From Gemmatimonadales bacterium (GTDB lineage Bacteria; Gemmatimonadota; Gemmatimonadetes; Gemmatimonadales; GWC2-71-9), in NCBI GenBank assembly GCA_040877595.1, contig JBBDNM010000063.1, forward strand, positions 6,735 to 70,734: DNA of 64,000 nucleotides, in the 5' to 3' direction. Shown here piece by piece: positions 6,722 to 59,197 of this stretch. The notes under the pieces are model-generated. The model did no database searches, was not told the DNA's origin, and was given only the letters and a program-made list of their open reading frames with translations. Position 1 is the first letter of the stretch, and every line of letters starts with the position of its first letter. The translations under genes were made by a program, and so were the position numbers.

Positions 6722-7855
6722 GTGGCGCTCCCCAACGAGGCCGTTCGGCGCTACGCCCGACACCTCACGCTGCCGCAGCTTGGTGAGGCAGGCCAGGCGA
6801 AGCTCATGGCCGCCCGCGTGCTCCTCGTGGGTGCCGGAGGGTTGGGCTCGCCGGCGGCCTTGTACCTGGCGGCGGCGGGTGTCGGGACTCTCGGGATCGT
6901 TGACGACGATACCGTTGACGAAACCAACCTCCAGCGACAGATCCTCCACGGCACGAGCGCCATCGGCCGCTCCAAGCTCGACTCGGCGGTCGCCCGACTC
7001 CGTGATCTCAACCCGCTGGTCACCGTGGAGCCGCACCCGGCGCGGCTGACGTCCGCCAACGCCCTCGAGATCGTGGGCGCCTACGAGGTCGTGCTGGACG
7101 GCAGTGACAACTTCCCGACCCGCTATCTCGTCAATGATGCCTGCGTGTTCACCGGCGTACCCGACGTGTACGGCGCGATCTATCGGTTTGAAGGCCAGCT
7201 TAGCGTGTTCGCCGCCGAGGGAGGGCCGTGTTACCGGTGTTTGTTCCGGGAGCCACCGCCACCCGAATTGGTGCCGTCGTGCGAGGAGGCCGGTGTACTC
7301 GGCGTGGTGCCCGGTGTCGTGGGGTCGTTGCAGGCGCTGGAAGTGATCAAGCTGGTGGCGGGCCTCGGGGCCCCACTGATCGGCCGACTGCTGTTGTTCG
7401 ACGCGTTGGCCGGTGCCACGCGCGAGATGGCCCTGAGCCGCGATCCCGACTGTCCGGTCTGCGGTGATCACCCCACCATTACCACGTTGCAGGACTACGA
7501 ACTGTTCTGCGGGATGCCTGCACACGAAATGTCACGCACGGAAAACCTCAGTCCCGCAGGGCTGGTCGCGCGCCTCGAGGAACCCGCGCCTCCCGTGCTC
7601 ATTGATGTGCGCGAGGATTGGGAATGGGGCCTCGGTCACCTTCCCGACGCGTTGCACGTGCCCATGGGACAGCTGCCCAAGCGCCTCAACGAACTGCCGC
7701 GCGACCGGGACCTGGTGCTGTACTGTCACCACGGGTCGCGCTCGTACCGAGCGATGGAGTTCCTGCGGCAGATGGGCTTCGACCGCGTCGCGCACCTGGA
7801 CGGTGGCGTGGCGGCATGGGCGGATGAGGTGGATGAGGGGATCGGGAGGTACTGA
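6722..7855 (+). CDS. MoeB/ThiF-type adenylyltransferase fused to a C-terminal rhodanese domain (MoeZ/MoeBR-like sulfur-carrier activating enzyme)
   Basis: It has RYARHLTLPQLGEAGQAKL, the nucleotide loop LLVGAGGLGSP, CYRC...CEEAGVLG, and a rhodanese active-site loop YCHHGSRS. The start is set at GTG 6722, after the aspA stop; the ORF-track start at 6497 is a shadow extension. Confidence 0.85.
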   Translation: MALPNEAVRRYARHLTLPQLGEAGQAKLMAARVLLVGAGGLGSPAALYLAAAGVGTLGIVDDDTVDETNLQRQILHGTSAIGRSKLDSAVARLRDLNPLVTVEPHPARLTSANALEIVGAYEVVLDGSDNFPTRYLVNDACVFTGVPDVYGAIYRFEGQLSVFAAEGGPCYRCLFREPPPPELVPSCEEAGVLGVVPGVVGSLQALEVIKLVAGLGAPLIGRLLLFDALAGATREMALSRDPDCPVCGDHPTITTLQDYELFCGMPAHEMSRTENLSPAGLVARLEEPAPPVLIDVREDWEWGLGHLPDALHVPMGQLPKRLNELPRDRDLVLYCHHGSRSYRAMEFLRQMGFDRVAHLDGGVAAWADEVDEGIGRY

Positions 7856-7862
7856 CGACATC

Positions 7863-7958
7863 CGAATGTCGAACGTCGAATGTCGAATGTCGAATGTCGA
7901 ATGTCGAAGTGATCCCCGTTCGTCATTCGTCATTCAACGTTCGTCATTCGTCATGCGG
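7863..7958. repeat. heptad-periodic inverted-repeat element, copy 1: (CGAATGT)7 - ATCCC - (CRTTCGT)6
   Basis: The left arm spans 7863-7911: CGAATGT, CGAACGT, CGAATGT x4, CGAAGTG. The right arm spans 7917-7958: CGTTCGT, CATTCGT, CATTCAA, CGTTCGT, CATTCGT, CATGCGG. The arms are reverse complements except for one position per heptad. The element lies between the moeB-like stop (7855) and the 3' end of tRNA-Leu (7969). Confidence 0.85.
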
Positions 7959-7968
7959 TTTTCCGGAG

Positions 7969-8052
7969 TGCCGAAGGGGGGACTCGAACCCCCACGGGCT
8001 TGCGCCCACTGGCTCCTGAAGCCAGCGCGTCTACCAGTTCCACCACTTCGGC
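7969..8052 (-). tRNA. tRNA-Leu (anticodon CAG)
   Basis: The reverse complement is GCCGAAGTGGTGGAACTGGTAGACGCGCTGGCTTCAGGAGCCAGTGGGCGCAAGCCCGTGGGGGTTCGAGTCCCCCCTTCGGCA. The acceptor stem is GCCGAAG/CTTCGGC and the anticodon stem is CTGGC/GCCAG with loop TTCAGGA. It has a long variable arm and a GGTTCGAGTCC T-arm. CCA is not encoded. Confidence 0.93.
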
Positions 8053-22494: not shown

Positions 22495-22496
22495 CC

Positions 22497-22524
22497 ATGC
22501 AACGTGCACCGTGCAACGTGCAAC
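22497..22524. repeat. heptanucleotide tandem repeat (GTGCAAC-like, 4 units) in the murB-wbpD spacer
   Basis: ATGCAAC GTGCACC GTGCAAC GTGCAAC lies directly after the murB stop (22492-22494) and 10 nt before the wbpD ATG. Confidence 0.8.
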
Positions 22525-22533
22525 GAGGGTGTC

Positions 22534-53452: not shown

Positions 53453-53514
53453 GTGGTGGCACGTTCCGTGCTTTTCCTAGGGACGTGACACTTTTCCATC
53501 AGGAGTGGGCGTCT

Positions 53515-54654
53515 ATGCGATTCCTTATTCCAGGCTTGGCGGTGGCCGCGATGGCGTGCGACCGGACCACGGAGATTGATCTTCTGGCACCAACCAACCT
53601 GACGTATCGGCTCGAGCCGTCAGGCGACCCCGACCTGCCCGCCGGGATCCTGTTGCAATGGGATCCCGTGTTGAGCAGCGGCCTTGAGGCGTACGAGGTG
53701 TATTCGCGCCCAGGGAGCAGTGGGTCGTTCGACCGCCGGGCCACCACCACGTCAACCACCTTCCACGACATCGGCGTACCGGATCTCGAGTACTACGTGA
53801 CCGCGCGGTCCACGGACGGTCGCGAGAGCGCGGCCAGTAACGCGGTGTATATCGATGAGCGGACCCGGATGGCGCGACCGGCGACGCTCACGTCCACGTC
53901 GCTGGACGGCGCGATCCACCTCGGATGGAGCGACAACGCCTTCCTCGCCGCCCCGAGCGCCTTCAAGCAGTACCGTATCTATAGCACGTTCTATGACCTC
54001 GATGCCGACGTGTGTGAAGCGGGCTGGATCCTCGAGGGCACGACGGTGGCCCCGGAGTTCCTTGTCGGGGCGTTGGCGAATGGTATCGCGCGGTGCTTTG
54101 CGGCGTCCGCCGAGAGTCACGCCGGCGATGAGAGCGTCTGGTCGCCACTCAGGGCCGACACCCCGCGGCCCGAGGGCCGGAACGTCCTGATGTTCCCGCT
54201 CTCGGTGGACCCCGCGCGGAGCGGGTTCCGGTTCTTCGACGACGCCAATGGCGATGGCCAGGCCTCGCGCATCGAACTGGGCCTGGTGGGTCCCGGTGGA
54301 TCGCCGTCCGTGGATTTCTGGGTCTATCGTGACGGCAACAACGACATCTTCCTGGTGCCACAACGCGCCGGCGTCCGTGTTGCCGTGTACGGCAGCGTGC
54401 CGGTCGGTGGTCTCACCAGCATCGATGTCGCGCCCGAGACGGGTTATGCCACGACGGGCGTCGAAGCGGTCCCCGGCTGGGGCTACGTGTTCGAGATGCC
54501 GGGTGGCGACGGGTTCCTCCGGTTTGGCGCCTTGCGGGTCACGCACGCGAGTGCGGACTACCTGATCTGCGATTGGGCGTACCAGACCGATCCGGGCAAT
54601 CCCGAGTTGCGCTGGATGGGAACGGTGGAGACCGGGGTGACCGTTCGTCGCTAA
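53515..54654 (+). CDS. putative lipoprotein with fibronectin type III-like repeats, function unknown
   Basis: ATG 53515 has AGGAG 9 nt upstream. The N-terminus is MRFLIPGLAVAAMAC. There are two FN3-like modules (LTYRLEP...LLQWDP...YEVYS...YYVTARSTDGRESAAS, and LTSTSLDGAIHLGWSD...YRIYST). Confidence 0.55.
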   Translation: MRFLIPGLAVAAMACDRTTEIDLLAPTNLTYRLEPSGDPDLPAGILLQWDPVLSSGLEAYEVYSRPGSSGSFDRRATTTSTTFHDIGVPDLEYYVTARSTDGRESAASNAVYIDERTRMARPATLTSTSLDGAIHLGWSDNAFLAAPSAFKQYRIYSTFYDLDADVCEAGWILEGTTVAPEFLVGALANGIARCFAASAESHAGDESVWSPLRADTPRPEGRNVLMFPLSVDPARSGFRFFDDANGDGQASRIELGLVGPGGSPSVDFWVYRDGNNDIFLVPQRAGVRVAVYGSVPVGGLTSIDVAPETGYATTGVEAVPGWGYVFEMPGGDGFLRFGALRVTHASADYLICDWAYQTDPGNPELRWMGTVETGVTVRR

Positions 54655-54662
54655 GACAACAA

Positions 54663-54759
54663 CGAATGGCGAATGACGAGTGAGGAATGACGAATGTCGA
54701 ACTGATGGTTGGTTCGGCATTCGCCATTCGCCATTCGCCATTCGCCATTCTCCGTTCCT
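54663..54759. repeat. heptad-periodic inverted-repeat element, copy 2: (CGAATGN)6 - loop - (CATTCGC)4 plus degenerate units
   Basis: The left arm (54663-54704) is CGAATGG CGAATGA CGAGTGA GGAATGA CGAATGT CGAACTG. The inner stem is CGAAC(54698-702)/GTTCG(54712-716) with a 9-nt loop. The right arm is CATTCGC x4 (54718-54745), then CATTCTC and CGTTCCT. It starts 9 nt after the upstream stop and ends just before the hutH ATG. Confidence 0.85.
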
Positions 54760-54765
54760 CCCGTT

Positions 54766-56277
54766 ATGCTCCGGCCAATGTCCATCTCGATTGACGGCCA
54801 TTCCCTCACGCTCGATCACGTCACCGCTGTCGCCCGCCGGGGCGCTATGGTGGCTGTGGCTCCCGAGGCCATCGCGCGGGCCAAGGCGTCGCGGGCCACG
54901 ATTGAGCGGTTGCTCGCGAGCGGGCGGTCCATCTACGGCGTGAACACCGGGTTCGGGAAGCTGGCCAGCGTGCGCATCCCGGATGATCGCCTGCGCGACC
55001 TGCAGCGCAACCTGATCGTCAGTCACGCCGCGGGCGTGGGCGACCCGCTGCCGCCGGACATCGTGCGCGCCATGATGCTGCTGCGCGCCAACGTCCTGCT
55101 GCGCGCAACGAGCGGCGTGCGTCCGGTCGTGGCGGAGCGTCTCATCGCGCTGCTCAACGCCGGCATCCTGCCCGTGGTCCCCGAGCAGGGGAGCGTGGGC
55201 GCGAGCGGTGACTTGGCGCCGTTGGCGCACCTGGCCCTGGCCCTGCTGGGTGAGGGTGAGGTGGATGTCCAGCGCTCCCGTCTTCCCGCCAAGGAGGCGC
55301 TCGATGCCGCCGGTATCGCGCTGCTCACGCTCGAGCCCAAGGAAGGGCTCGCCTTCGTGAACGGTACGCAGGCCCAGACCGCGGTCCTGGCCCTCGTGCT
55401 GGCGGATGCCGAGCGGTTGTGGCATCACGCGCACGTCGGCGCCGCGATGTCGGTCGAAGCCCTGCGGGGCACCCCCGATCCGTTTGACCCGCGCATCCAT
55501 GCCGCTCGGCCCCATCCGGGCCAGGTCCGGTCGGCCGCGTTGCTCGCGGACCTGCTGGCGGGGTCGGCCCTGCGCGAGTCGCATCGTGAGAACGACCCCC
55601 GTGTCCAGGATGCCTACAGCCTGCGGTGCACGCCGCAGGTGTATGGTCCCGTCGCCGACATGCTGGCGTTCGCCCGGCAGATTCTCGACACGGAACTCAA
55701 TGCCTCCACCGATAACCCGCTGCTGCTGGGCGAGGATGTCGTGTCCGGCGGCAACTTCCACGGCCAGTACGTGGCGATGGCGCTCGACACCGTGACGGTG
55801 GCGCTCACGACGCTGGCCGGGCTCGCGGAGCGGCGCATCGAACGGTTGCTCAACCCCGACCTGTCCGAAGGTCTGCCCGCGTTCCTCGCGGCGTCGCCGG
55901 GGCTCGAGTCCGGATTCATGATGGTGCAGGTGACCGCGGCGGCGCTGGTGGCCGAGAGTCGGACGCTCTGCATGCCGGCGAGTGTGCAGTCCATTCCCAC
56001 GGGTGCCAACCAGGAAGATTGGGTGCCGATGGGCATGGTGGCGGCCTTCAAGGCCCGGCGCGTCCTCGCCAACGCCGAACACGTGGTGGCCGCAGAATTG
56101 CTGTGCGCGGCGCAAGCGCTCGGCGGGGCGACCATCGCGGGTCCGACCCCGGCGCCCAAGGTGGTGGCGGCGTGGCGGGCGGTGCGTGAGGTGGTCGCCC
56201 CGCTCACGGCCGATCGGGCTCCCGCACCGGACCTGGTCCGTCTGCGCGCGCGCCTGGCCGGCTCGTTGCTCGCGTGA
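54766..56277 (+). CDS. hutH: histidine ammonia-lyase
   Basis: [17 protein letters not shown] and [16 protein letters not shown] (the MIO-forming ASG). ATG 54766, with an alternative at 54778. Confidence 0.95.
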
Positions 56278-57935
56278 GCGGTCCCCGCGTGGTGCGCGCC
56301 CCGCGGGGATCCACGCGGACGTGCAGGGGCTGGGTGCAGGAAGCCGCGCTCCGCATGCTCATGAACAATCTCGATCCCGCGGTGGCGGAACGGCCGGATG
56401 ACCTGGTGGTCTACGGCGGTACCGGTCGCGCCGCGCGCAGTTGGGATGCGTTCGACGCGATGTGTCGGACGCTCACGACGCTCGCGGACGACGCAACGAT
56501 GCTGGTGCAGTCGGGGCGACCGGTCGGCGTGTTCCGCACCCATCCGGACGCGCCCCGCGTCCTGATTGCCAACGGCAACCTGGTCGGGCGCTGGGCGACG
56601 TGGGACGTGTTTCGCGACCTCGAGCGGCGCGGGCTCACCATGTACGGGCAGATGACCGCCGGCAGCTGGATCTACATTGGCACGCAGGGCATCCTGCAGG
56701 GCACGTACGAGACCTTCGGCGCAGTCGCCCGCGAGCACTTTGGCGGGTCGCTGACCGGCCGGATCGTCGTCACCGGGGGTCTGGGTGGCATGGGTGGGGC
56801 TCAGCCGCTTGCGGCCACGATGCACGGGGCGGCGCTCCTCGCCATCGAAGTGGATCCCGCCCGGATCGCGCGGCGGCTCGAGACCCGCTACCTGGACGAG
56901 ATGACCGACTCGCTCGACGCGGCGTGGGCGGCGGTGACGGCCGCCGCCGCCGCGGGACGCGCGCGGTCGGTTGGGTTGGTGGGGAACTGCGCGGACGTGC
57001 TCCCCGCGATGGTACGGCACGGGTGGATTCCGGATGTCGTGACCGACCAGACCTCCGCGCACGATCCGCTGAACGGCTACGTCCCCGCGGGGCTCGACCT
57101 GGCCACCGCCGCCGAGTGGCGGCAACGCGATCCAACCCGGTACGTCGCAGAGGCCCGCGCCTCCATGGTGGAGCACGTGCGCGCGATGCGGGCCATGCAG
57201 GACGCGGGCGCGGTCGCCTTTGACTACGGCAACAACATTCGCACCGAGGCGCTGGATGCGGGCCTCGCCGACGCGTTTACCATTCCCGGTTTCGTGCCGG
57301 CCTACGTGCGGCCGTTGTTCTGCGAGGGGAAGGGGCCGTTCCGCTGGGTGGCGCTCTCGGGCGACCCGGCCGACCTCGCCCGCACCGATCGCCTCGTGCT
57401 CGAGCTGTTTCCCGACGACGAGCATCTCACGCGGTGGATCCGCTTGGCGGGCGCACAGGTCGCCTTGCAGGGTCTGCCGGCGCGGATCTGCTGGCTGGGG
57501 CAGGGGGAGCGCGCCCGGTTTGGTCTCGCACTCAATGACCTGGTCGCCCGCGGGGAGCTCTCGGCACCCATCGTGATTGGGCGCGATCACCTGGACACGG
57601 GATCGGTGGCGTCTCCGTTCCGCGAGACCGAGGCCATGCTCGATGGTTCGGACGCCATAGCCGACTGGCCGATCCTGAACGCCCTGCTCAACACCGCGTC
57701 CGGCGCCTCGTGGGTGTCCTTCCATCATGGCGGCGGCGTCGGCATCGGCAACAGCCTGCACGCCGGGCAGGTGATCGTGGCGGACGGCACTCCGGAGGCG
57801 GCCCGTCGGCTGGAACGCGTGCTGACCAACGATCCCGGCATCGGGGTCGTGCGACATGCCGAGGCGGGCTACCCGACGGCGCGCGCCACGGCCGAGCAGC
57901 ACGGTCTCCGGATGCCCATGCACGAGGGTCCGTGA
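56274..57935 (+). CDS. hutU: urocanate hydratase
   Basis: [28 protein letters not shown]...[13 protein letters not shown]...[15 protein letters not shown] 56274 overlaps the hutH stop. Confidence 0.95.
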
Positions 57936-59197
57936 GCACGCTGCTCGCCGGCGCCCGGCAGGTGGTGACGTGTCGTGGGCCGGCGCGCGCCCGGCGCGGG
58001 CCCGAGATGGCGGATCTTGAGGTCCTGACGGACGCGGGCGTGGTGATCGGGGACGACGGGATGATCGTCGCGGTCGGTCCGCTCGCCGACCTCGAGCGGG
58101 CACACCCGAAGGCCGAGGTGGTGGGAGTGGAAGGCGTGTTGTTCCCCGGGTTCGTGGATGCGCATACCCATGCGGTGTTCGGCGGGCCGCGCCTGGCGGA
58201 CCACGAACGTCGCGCACGCGGTGACGACTACCAGGCGATCGCTGAGGCCGGTGGGGGCATCCTGTCGTCCGTGCGGGACCTGCGCGCGCGGACGGCGGCG
58301 GACCTCGCGGAGCGGACCCGCCGCCGTCTGGCGTTTCTCCTCGCGCAGGGCACCACCACGGTCGAGGTGAAGTCGGGGTATGGGCTGTCGGTGGCGGATG
58401 AACTCCGGTCGCTCGAAATCCTCGGTCCACTGCGCGACGGCATCCCGGACGTGATCCCGACGTTCCTGGGCGCGCACGAGGTCCCTGAGGAGTTCCGCCC
58501 GGACCGCGCCGGCTACGTGCGGCACGTGATGGCGGACATGCTGCCGGCGGTGGCGGCTCAGGGAATGGCGCGGTTCTGTGACGTGTTCTGCGAGCCGGGC
58601 GTCTTCACGGTAGCGGAGTCGCGAGCGATCCTCCAGGCCGGGCGTGCGCTCGGCCTCGGGGCCAAGATCCATGCGGATGAGCTGGACGGCTCGGGTGGGG
58701 CGGAGCTCGCGGCCGAGCTCGGGGCCGTTTCGGCCGACCATCTGGCCCGCATCTCCGAGGCGGGGATCGCCGCGCTGGCTGGGTCCCCTACGGTCGCCGT
58801 GCTCCTGCCGGGTACCATGCTCTTCCTCGGGCGTCGGGAGCAGGCGCCCGCCCGCGCCCTCATCGCGGCGGGGGCTGCGGTCGCCCTGGCGACGGACTTC
58901 AATCCCGGGAGCTCGCCCGGCGTGAGCCTGCCCCTCATGGCCATGCTCGGGGTGTCCCAGTTGCGGATGCACCCGGCCGAAGCCGTGATCGCGATAACGG
59001 TCAACGGGGCCGCGGCGCTCGGAGAGGCGAAGACGCGGGGTCAGCTCACCCCCGGGTTCCGTGCCGACCTCGTTTTGCTGGCCGTGGACAACTGGCGCGA
59101 ACTGCCGTATTGGTACGGGGGCTCCCTGGTGCGGGGAATCTGGGTGCGCGGCATGGCTTGTCACCCCCCGGGTCCACCCGTAAATTCAATCGCTTGA
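57932..59197 (+). CDS. hutI: imidazolonepropionase
   Basis: [21 protein letters not shown] and [13 protein letters not shown] 57932 overlaps the hutU stop; the track start at 57710 is a shadow extension. Confidence 0.92.

Follow-up and report, generated by a model that had tools for sequence, protein, structure and literature searches.

The window analysed here is a stretch of 64,000 nucleotides (nt) from a soil Gemmatimonadales metagenome-assembled genome (MAG; GenBank GCA_040877595.1, 2.66 Mb in 97 contigs, 66.8% G+C), taken from contig JBBDNM010000063.1, forward-strand positions 6,735 to 70,734. Between a lipoprotein-like gene and hutH of the hut operon, at positions 54655-54765, the window carries a spacer filled with tandem heptamers of the type CGAATGN and their inverted complements, referred to below as the focal element. 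A preliminary description, made from the letters alone, had read it as a heptad hairpin belonging to a dispersed family with another copy at 7863-7958 (copy 1), and had proposed that the element be folded and its family counted and mapped across the genome. In what follows, G000 denotes this genome, C-numbers its contigs and L-numbers the loci of relatives. The features of the locus are given below.

53485..54654, + strand: upstream lipoprotein-like gene, 389 aa by longest open reading frame (ORF) (caller start 53536); ORF list, translation
54663..54705, + strand: 5' arm of the element, six CGAATGN heptads, 71% purine, 78% unit identity; sequence, RNAfold, Tandem Repeats Finder (TRF)
54706..54708, + strand: loop of the minimum-free-energy hairpin, unlike the loops of other copies; RNAfold, copy comparison
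54709..54750, + strand: 3' arm, GTTCGG, CATTCGC four times and CATTC, 31% purine, 96% unit identity; sequence, RNAfold, TRF
54751..54764, + strand: pyrimidine-rich tail of decayed units (TCCGTTCCTCCCGT), no T-tract; sequence, terminator scan
54765..54770, + strand: -10-like box TATGCT (TANNNT), 7 nt before ATG 54778, putative promoter; box and spacing in relatives, genome-wide TANNNT peak
54778..56277, + strand: hutH, histidine ammonia-lyase, from its likely true start; Pfam PF00221, E = 2.5e-190, homology starting at MSISIDG
56334-57935, + strand: hutU, urocanase domain; Pfam
57932-59197, + strand: hutI, imidazolonepropionase domain; Pfam

A TAA at 54652-54654 closes the upstream ORF and, after an 8-base gap, the heptads run from 54663, the left arm reading CGAATGG, CGAATGA, CGAGTGA, GGAATGA, CGAATGT and CGAAC, and the right arm GTTCGG, four times CATTCGC and CATTCTC. 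When folded with RNAfold, as had been proposed, positions 54664-54750 (87 bases) formed a single hairpin of 38 pairs with a 3-nt loop and a free energy of -58.3 kcal/mol, compared with -34.6 +/- 3.6 kcal/mol in 200 dinucleotide shuffles (z = -6.6), none of which folded as well. TRF detected both arms independently (54662-54701, period 7, 5.7 copies, 78% matches; 54713-54750, period 7, 5.4 copies, 96% matches), and the two differ in regularity, the right arm being homogenised and the left heterogeneous. The hairpin of heptads and complements is thus borne out, and one detail of its description needs correction, since the seventh heptad base, said to be mostly unpaired, is often paired, the stem being unbroken in its outer 12 pairs and again in its inner 15. 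The focal element is a microsatellite palindrome, that is, a tandem 7-nt array together with its own inverted copy. It has the GC-rich stem-loop of an intrinsic terminator, placed directly 3' of a gene with the stem beginning 9 nt after the stop codon. No Rfam family matched the element at the gathering score, a tRNA-Leu being the sole match in the whole window.

The array class and its polarity

Genome-wide, approximately 340 arrays of period 7 or 8 were found at about 290 array loci. Arrays of at least 3.5 copies numbered 168 at period 7 and 95 at period 8, as against just 7, 33, 16 and 1 at periods 5, 6, 9 and 10, respectively (TRF). The units are diverse, with about 100 types (48 canonical heptamers and 49 octamers), some of them G-rich (e.g. 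ACGGGAG, AGGGGGC). The CGAATGN group accounts for approximately 19 arrays at 13 loci, each with at least three CGAATG-type heptads, and five to seven of these loci are full hairpins; the copies share no common internal sequence, and their loops and flanks are unrelated. A dispersed family therefore exists as had been supposed, but it is just one of the roughly 100 unit types that the period-7/8 class has across the genome. CGAATG arrays are nearly lacking in relatives, which abound in other units. The density of arrays was 12.8 per 100 kb here and 13.8 per 100 kb in one genome of the same order, and other orders of the same class yielded 2.5-3.7 weak arrays per 100 kb (small samples). The class of period-7/8 arrays of which the focal element is a member extends through this genome and through the order Gemmatimonadales.

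Hairpins were scored by a strict ungapped inverted-repeat score of at least 12. The RNAfold pair count was dropped as a measure, as 20 or more pairs occurred in 37% of arrays and in 33% of random windows. By the strict score, 49 of the 290 array loci are true hairpins, compared with 0.8% of random control windows, and of the 122 strong inverted repeats found in the genome 47 (~40%) are array hairpins. Positions were assigned on a genome-wide gene map from a home-made codon-bias caller, for which stops are reliable and starts approximate. The 47 array hairpins comprise 24 in co-directional spacers, 12 in convergent spacers, 2 in divergent spacers, 8 inside predicted genes and 1 at a contig end. 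Per intergenic base they are about 15-fold denser in convergent than in divergent spacers (p = 1.5e-5), the excess being significant because divergent spacers hold 2.5 times as many bases as convergent ones. The mapping to stop codons that had been called for gave a median distance of 6.5 nt from stop to stem and of 27.5 nt from stem to next start, and 19 of the 24 co-directional hairpins lie nearer the stop than the next start. About 2% of the spacers of this genome hold an array hairpin. The stop-to-stem gaps of the focal element (9 nt) and of copy 1 (7 nt) are both typical; the hairpin of copy 1 folds to -46.8 kcal/mol (z = -4.7; RNAfold) and lies at the following position.

7863..7958, + strand: copy 1, CGAATG-family hairpin between a moeB-rhodanese gene (stop 7853-7855) and a convergent tRNA-Leu(CAG) at 7968-8052; RNAfold, TRF

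Purines predominate in the 5' arm of 44 of the 47 array hairpins (p = 2e-10), a rule that is valid when read from either strand because the element is palindromic. Plain hairpins downstream of genes share this polarity (26 purine-first against 7), but it is not seen in plain inverted repeats within genes (13 against 19), most of which have probably arisen by chance. Single arrays follow a corresponding rule: in convergent spacers, 19 of 20 arrays beside a stop are purine-rich on the sense strand of that gene, and in co-directional spacers the rule is obeyed by 11 of 13 sense-purine-rich arrays. The tails after array hairpins contain 28% T and 20% G, compared with 17% and 33% genome-wide. Array hairpins hence persist nearly solely right behind stop codons, oriented so that the purines come first. 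This polarity amounts to a strong and simple rule that can be tested; slippage by itself does not account for it, and it could reveal how hairpins that lack a U-tract end transcription in high-GC bacteria.

The hutH spacer in relatives and the hutH start

The orthologous site was defined as the spacer between the conserved lipoprotein-like gene and hutH and was compared in about 145 relatives. The hutH product is 60-72% identical to its orthologues in Gemmatimonadales MAGs, and the best matches on metagenome contigs reached 83% (partial), 74% and 70% identity; the genome and metagenome hutH searches returned no strain-level relative, and the genome relatives are all of other genera. A homologue of the lipoprotein-like protein is encoded directly 5' of hutH at 71 of 80 genome loci and 74 of 80 metagenome loci, so that hutHUI is preceded by this gene, whose product had no Pfam match, in ~90% of the 160 Gemmatimonadales loci. 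This conservation suggests an uncharacterised role tied to histidine use or uptake.

A strict hairpin was present in the hutH spacer at 27 of 66 genome loci and 40 of 73 metagenome loci scored, and most of the spacers that fell short of the strict score still fold well. The filling takes three forms. The first is a plain GC hairpin, typically GCGCCGGAGTGG-loop-CCACTCCGGCGC followed by TTTAGCTTT, which is a classic hairpin with a T-tail and in which TAGCTT doubles as a -10 box. In the second form, found at least ten times, an array hairpin with unrelated units (AGGGAGC, GAGGTCGA, GGTGAGC, GAAGTGA, AAGACGCC, CGGCTAGA, AGGGGAG and others) occupies the slot of the plain terminator. The third form, seen at L005 and L006, consists of inverted arrays around a PF05635 gene (E = 9e-25). 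The purine-rich arm comes first in 39 of the 40 metagenome hairpins. Position and architecture are thus retained in the hutH spacer and the sequence is replaced. The spacer offers a clean natural experiment, with one slot, ~145 genomes and three kinds of filling.

The same comparison bears on the start of hutH. In essentially all relatives a -10-like hexamer (TATATT, TAGCTT, TACGTT, GAGATT or CAACTT) lies 6-9 nt before the hutH ATG, often with a TTGACC- or TTGAAT-like box 17 nt further upstream. Across this genome the frequency of TANNNT peaks 11-13 nt before start codons, in ~10% of genes with spacers of at least 40 nt, and a separate Shine-Dalgarno (SD)-like peak alongside it. The Gemmatimonadetes have been listed among the low-SD classes, with ~22% SD use reported (PMC10783764). 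Homology and the conserved -10 box indicate that hutH probably starts at ATG 54778 and not, as in the preliminary description, at ATG 54766. Its mRNA is probably leaderless and would begin downstream of the hairpin, which would then lie outside the hutH mRNA. The missing SD sequence noted earlier is explained by the probable leaderless mRNA, and with a -10-like box 6-9 nt before the ATG in hutH orthologues the suggestion of a structure gating hut expression loses its basis. The layout of hairpin, TANNNT, 5-9 nt and ATG recurs after at least 5 of the 24 co-directional array hairpins of this genome. For annotation, the hutH start would probably move to 54778, and the lack of an SD sequence is normal in the class.

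Origin and function of the array hairpins

The arrays record their own history in part. At L006 a 57-nt in-frame hairpin lies within hutH, where the close relative L005 has only GGGAAGCAGGAAGGG (two units, one arm). Across the arrays, variant units are mirrored between arms 46 times, compared with ~3 expected for independent arms, and 90 variants are restricted to one arm. Arms must therefore have been copied from each other, as the mirrored variants indicate, and have later drifted, as those confined to one arm indicate. The focal copy is of the drifted kind, with a homogenised right arm and a heterogeneous left one. A plausible course of events is that replication slippage enlarges a short proto-repeat present at the site, inverted duplication or template switching makes one arm a copy of the other, and the arms then drift and re-homogenise independently; this last step would account for the different unit sequences at different loci and in different genomes. 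The DNA-level origin of the arrays is a dynamic one and is documented in part by these comparisons, and the arrays fit in-situ slippage with inverted duplication or template switching and do not fit transposition.

Other routes were tried and rejected. Healing of breaks by a reverse transcriptase, in the manner of telomeres, would yield the observed polarity. It was set aside, as the genome has no PF00078 gene, the unit types are too many and variants are mirrored. Mobilisation by a REP-associated tyrosine transposase (RAYT), as for repetitive extragenic palindromic (REP) sequences, is contradicted by the two Y1_Tnp genes, neither of which is flanked by inverted heptamer arrays; near the Y1 transposase gene on C5 there are only same-strand period-7/15 and period-8 arrays. 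A miniature inverted-repeat transposable element was likewise rejected, as copies share no internal sequence and no flanking direct repeat was seen by eye (no dedicated search was run). As a separate observation, the Y1 gene at C37:10850-11760 (IS200-like, RAYT-like) has REP-like palindromes on both sides (GGATGCCGCTGAAGCGGCACC..., GCCGAGCCGCGGCTTCAGCCGTGG), which are non-periodic and constitute a further repeat system with no relation to the heptamer arrays.

As to function, we consider it somewhat probable that the focal element is a slippage-born palindrome that serves as a U-tract-poor, promoter-coupled terminator or as a 3'-end-protecting hairpin, and thereby insulates the hut operon. The element occupies the slot in which relatives carry the hairpin that would end the upstream lipoprotein-like transcript, and it stands immediately in front of the -10 box of the putative leaderless hutH promoter, where it would block read-through into hut. 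From the general stability order of hybrids, a pyrimidine-rich RNA paired to purine-rich DNA is weak. The pyrimidine-rich 3' arm and tail may accordingly provide a weak RNA:DNA hybrid at stem closure as a stand-in for the U-tract. Rho is present in the genome and could contribute to termination. The hairpin would neither mask a ribosome-binding site nor set hutH expression by its unit number. We infer that the transcript of the lipoprotein-like gene is terminated or protected by the focal copy, and that the putative leaderless promoter of hut is insulated by it. Among the roles offered in the preliminary description, a REP-like terminator or mRNA stabiliser fits best with position, polarity and the content of the same site in relatives, and the gating of hut does not fit.

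A number of findings weigh against the terminator or protector reading. The T-tract terminator scan found no T-tract after the focal stem, the tail being TCCGTTCCTCCC, and the 27 nt from the stem end to the putative hutH start exceed the distance in plain-hairpin relatives. Only one of seven variant positions of the focal copy is mirrored between its arms. Sense-strand mismatches in 26 co-directional hairpins are of the G:U type 17 times and of the A:C type 18 times, an absence of asymmetry by which selection on the sense RNA was rejected and the G-U wobble noted earlier in the focal stem loses its value as a signal. Arrays also occur within proteins: the HutH proteins of L006, L007 and L012 carry in-frame array inserts of 14-19 residues in one surface loop (L006:3495-3557, L007:545-604, L012:1201-1248), those of L006 and L007 with reversed polarity, the pyrimidine arm first, and in this genome a 70-nt hairpin (C60:71862-71931) encodes the ligase/Prim-Pol linker of LigD. 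These in-frame cases in hutH and LigD were checked by homology, and the count of genic arrays (~140) is soft, given the crude gene caller. Finally, tRNA-Leu lies downstream of moeB at 18 of 31 Gemmatimonad loci, in 16 of them convergent as in the window, and 8 of these 16 have 0-12 nt from the stop codon to the tRNA 3' end and no hairpin, so that array hairpins can be dispensable at the copy-1 site and are sporadically gained. In three of the 16 loci other units form an array hairpin or inverted arrays, purine-first in every case.

Another reading, which the sporadic gains keep alive, is that of a neutral or selfish by-product, a fast-evolving microsatellite palindrome without a role that survives behind stops solely since insertions harm least there; we regard it as a lesser but serious possibility. 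It draws on the missing mismatch asymmetry, the complete turnover of unit sequences between relatives, the gain or loss between the close relatives L005 and L006, the empty copy-1 sites, the arrays tolerated in protein loops and the independent drift of the focal arms. Tolerance alone, however, predicts neither the 44 of 47 purine-first hairpins nor the sense-strand rule of single arrays, and the polarity is shared by plain downstream hairpins and not by chance inverted repeats inside genes. Moreover, the hutH spacer holds a hairpin by the strict score in 46% of cases, compared with the ~2% of spacers genome-wide that hold an array hairpin. It is improbable that the focal element is instead the empty or collapsed stem of a PF05635 '23S-IVS-protein' (intervening sequence, IVS) cassette, in which inverted arrays would bracket a small gene module, mobile or decaying, and whose cargo was lost or never gained. 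The hutH spacers of L005 and L006 hold a PF05635 gene between inverted arrays, and all eight PF05635 genes of this genome are so bracketed, one of them with CGAATGT units; but 8 loaded brackets stand against ~40 empty hairpins and ~240 single arrays, the focal loop of 3-9 nt holds no ORF or gene remnant, in the comparison of L005 with L006 a local proto-repeat has given rise to a hairpin with no cargo involved, and there is no associated transposase and no target-site duplication visible by eye (no dedicated search was made).

We attach very little probability to a contingency or regulatory element in which unit number or RNA structure switches or gates hut. The array does abut the hutH promoter region, the -35 position falls within the 3' arm, and in L025, L030 and L073 a variant unit gives rise to a box, TTACCG or TTGTCA, that is separated from the -10 box by 16-17 nt. 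A contingency-locus role is nevertheless unlikely on the sequence evidence because the -10 box, like the start codon, lies outside the array, and changes by whole units would keep both the -35 sequence and its spacing. A leaderless start would leave the hairpin outside the hutH mRNA, like elements follow dozens of unrelated genes, and MutS is present in the genome. Slighter still, and close to negligible, is the chance of an RNase III processing site or a G-quadruplex (G4) element. Long perfect stems are classic substrates of RNase III, which counts in favour of processing. The heptamers of Xanthomonas, for their part, have been described as G4-forming (PMC4692102), but the CGAATGN unit has no G-run and so forms no G4. 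RNase III itself is absent from this genome, in which neither PF14622 nor PF00636 matched and no ERLEFLGD-type motif was found in six frames. PF14622 was missing from all 46 genomes of the class sampled, single-contig genomes included, and PF00636 from 25 relatives and this genome. Elsewhere in the phylum, by contrast, PF14622 was detected in 14 of 15 genomes belonging to other classes. RNase III thus appears to have been lost in the whole class. Our literature search found no paper stating such a class-wide loss, which is a separate observation worth following. The loss was rejected as a sufficient cause of the arrays, since the other orders of the class, with the low densities given above, lack the enzyme as well.

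A broader and more doubtful extension of the terminator or protector reading is that array hairpins are self-renewing, U-tract-independent, bidirectional terminators peculiar to the Gemmatimonadales, with the loss of RNase III and the PF05635 stems as parts of the same picture. Slippage and arm-to-arm copying would keep making long stems behind stops, and the polarity of a purine-rich 5' and a pyrimidine-rich 3' arm would be needed for release via the weak hybrid of pyrimidine RNA with purine DNA, or might alternatively result from expansion driven by R-loops where the RNA is naked, immediately beyond the stop codon. RNA duplexes of 40 bp would be tolerated since the whole class lost RNase III, and PF05635 genes would owe their stems to this same module. 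If true, this would link microsatellites, terminators and rRNA-IVS cassettes.

Known repeat systems and further arrays

The preliminary description knew of no described family of this architecture and named the heptamers of heterocystous cyanobacteria as the closest analogy. A nearer one exists in the GGGAATC heptamers of Xanthomonas campestris and X. axonopodis, which occupy ~180 loci per genome, mostly intergenic (Rehm et al. 2015, PMC4692102). They include 70-75 inverted, stem-loop-capable pairs per genome with convergent G-rich strands, are over-represented on the sense strand in the 50 bp that follow a stop codon and under-represented in divergent spacers, and vary in unit number with a preference for four units, which was interpreted in terms of G-quadruplexes (PMC4692102). 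The arrays described here resemble them in having tandem 7-nt units with an inverted array nearby, and in lying in intergenic regions, near stops on the sense strand and seldom in divergent spacers. They differ in that Xanthomonas has essentially one unit per genome, the G-rich, G4-type GGGNATC, whereas here there are ~100 units of both 7 and 8 nt and CGAATGN lacks a G-tract. Here, too, arrays replace plain terminators at orthologous sites, bracket PF05635 genes and run in frame through coding sequence, all in another phylum and in a lineage without RNase III. Inverted heptamer pairs are thus already known in Xanthomonas, and it is the multi-unit Gemmatimonadales form that differs.

The short tandemly repeated repetitive (STRR) heptamers of heterocystous cyanobacteria and GGGGAYT of Nostoc are abundant intergenic tandem heptamers of unknown function (PMC4692102). 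They are less similar, with few inverted pairs in Nostoc, fixed and few units and another taxon. REP sequences, with their bacterial interspersed mosaic elements (BIME) and REPIN forms, are units of 20-40 conserved nt in Enterobacteria and Pseudomonas that are mobilised by the RAYT transposase (Bertels and Rainey 2011, PMC3116915). Like the array hairpins, they are dispersed extragenic palindromes at gene 3' ends and between convergent genes, and transcript stabilisation or termination is thought to be their role; unlike them, the elements here are internally periodic, are not conserved in sequence and do not flank Y1 genes as inverted arrays. In promoter-coupled intrinsic terminators, a stem-loop between tandem genes is followed by a -10 element and the DNA of the stem covers the -35 region, with a T-tract and a termination site 8-11 bp before the start site (Fletcher et al. 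2026, bioRxiv 10.64898/2026.08.19.745784). The focal element shares the hairpin directly followed by a -10-like box, and differs in lacking a T-tract, in its 27 nt from stem to putative start and in its stem, which is a microsatellite palindrome. The ORF-bearing 23S rRNA IVS stems (PF05635) are comparable in that a long stem brackets a gene for a four-helix bundle, as at the eight loci here and at L005 and L006, and different in that the focal copy is geneless and outside rRNA, in a class without RNase III for excision. A literature search found no paper on such repeats in the Gemmatimonadota.

Several observations accompany these comparisons. The eight PF05635 (23S rRNA-intervening-sequence protein) genes bracketed by inverted arrays of period 7, 8, 15 or 16 lie at C62:73294, C41:25221, C75:4964, C26:128927, C66:75248, C94:35511, C73:38392 and C60:10502, and the bracket built of CGAATGT units is at C60:10337-10811. 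A loaded bracket in the hutH spacer is found at L005:2333-2958, and likewise at L006. The window itself contains a further, single array.

22495..22533, + strand: single array of four GTGCAAC-type heptads that fills the 40-nt spacer between two co-directional genes; TRF

It is a member of the commonest unit family of the genome (ACCGTGC/AACGTGC, 46 arrays). Heptamer arrays also break the short-read assembly, with several MAG contigs ending in them: C7, C20, C43, C44, C50 and C59 start with or end in period-7 arrays of up to 15.6 copies, and the 12.8-kb contig C75 holds more than 14 arrays.

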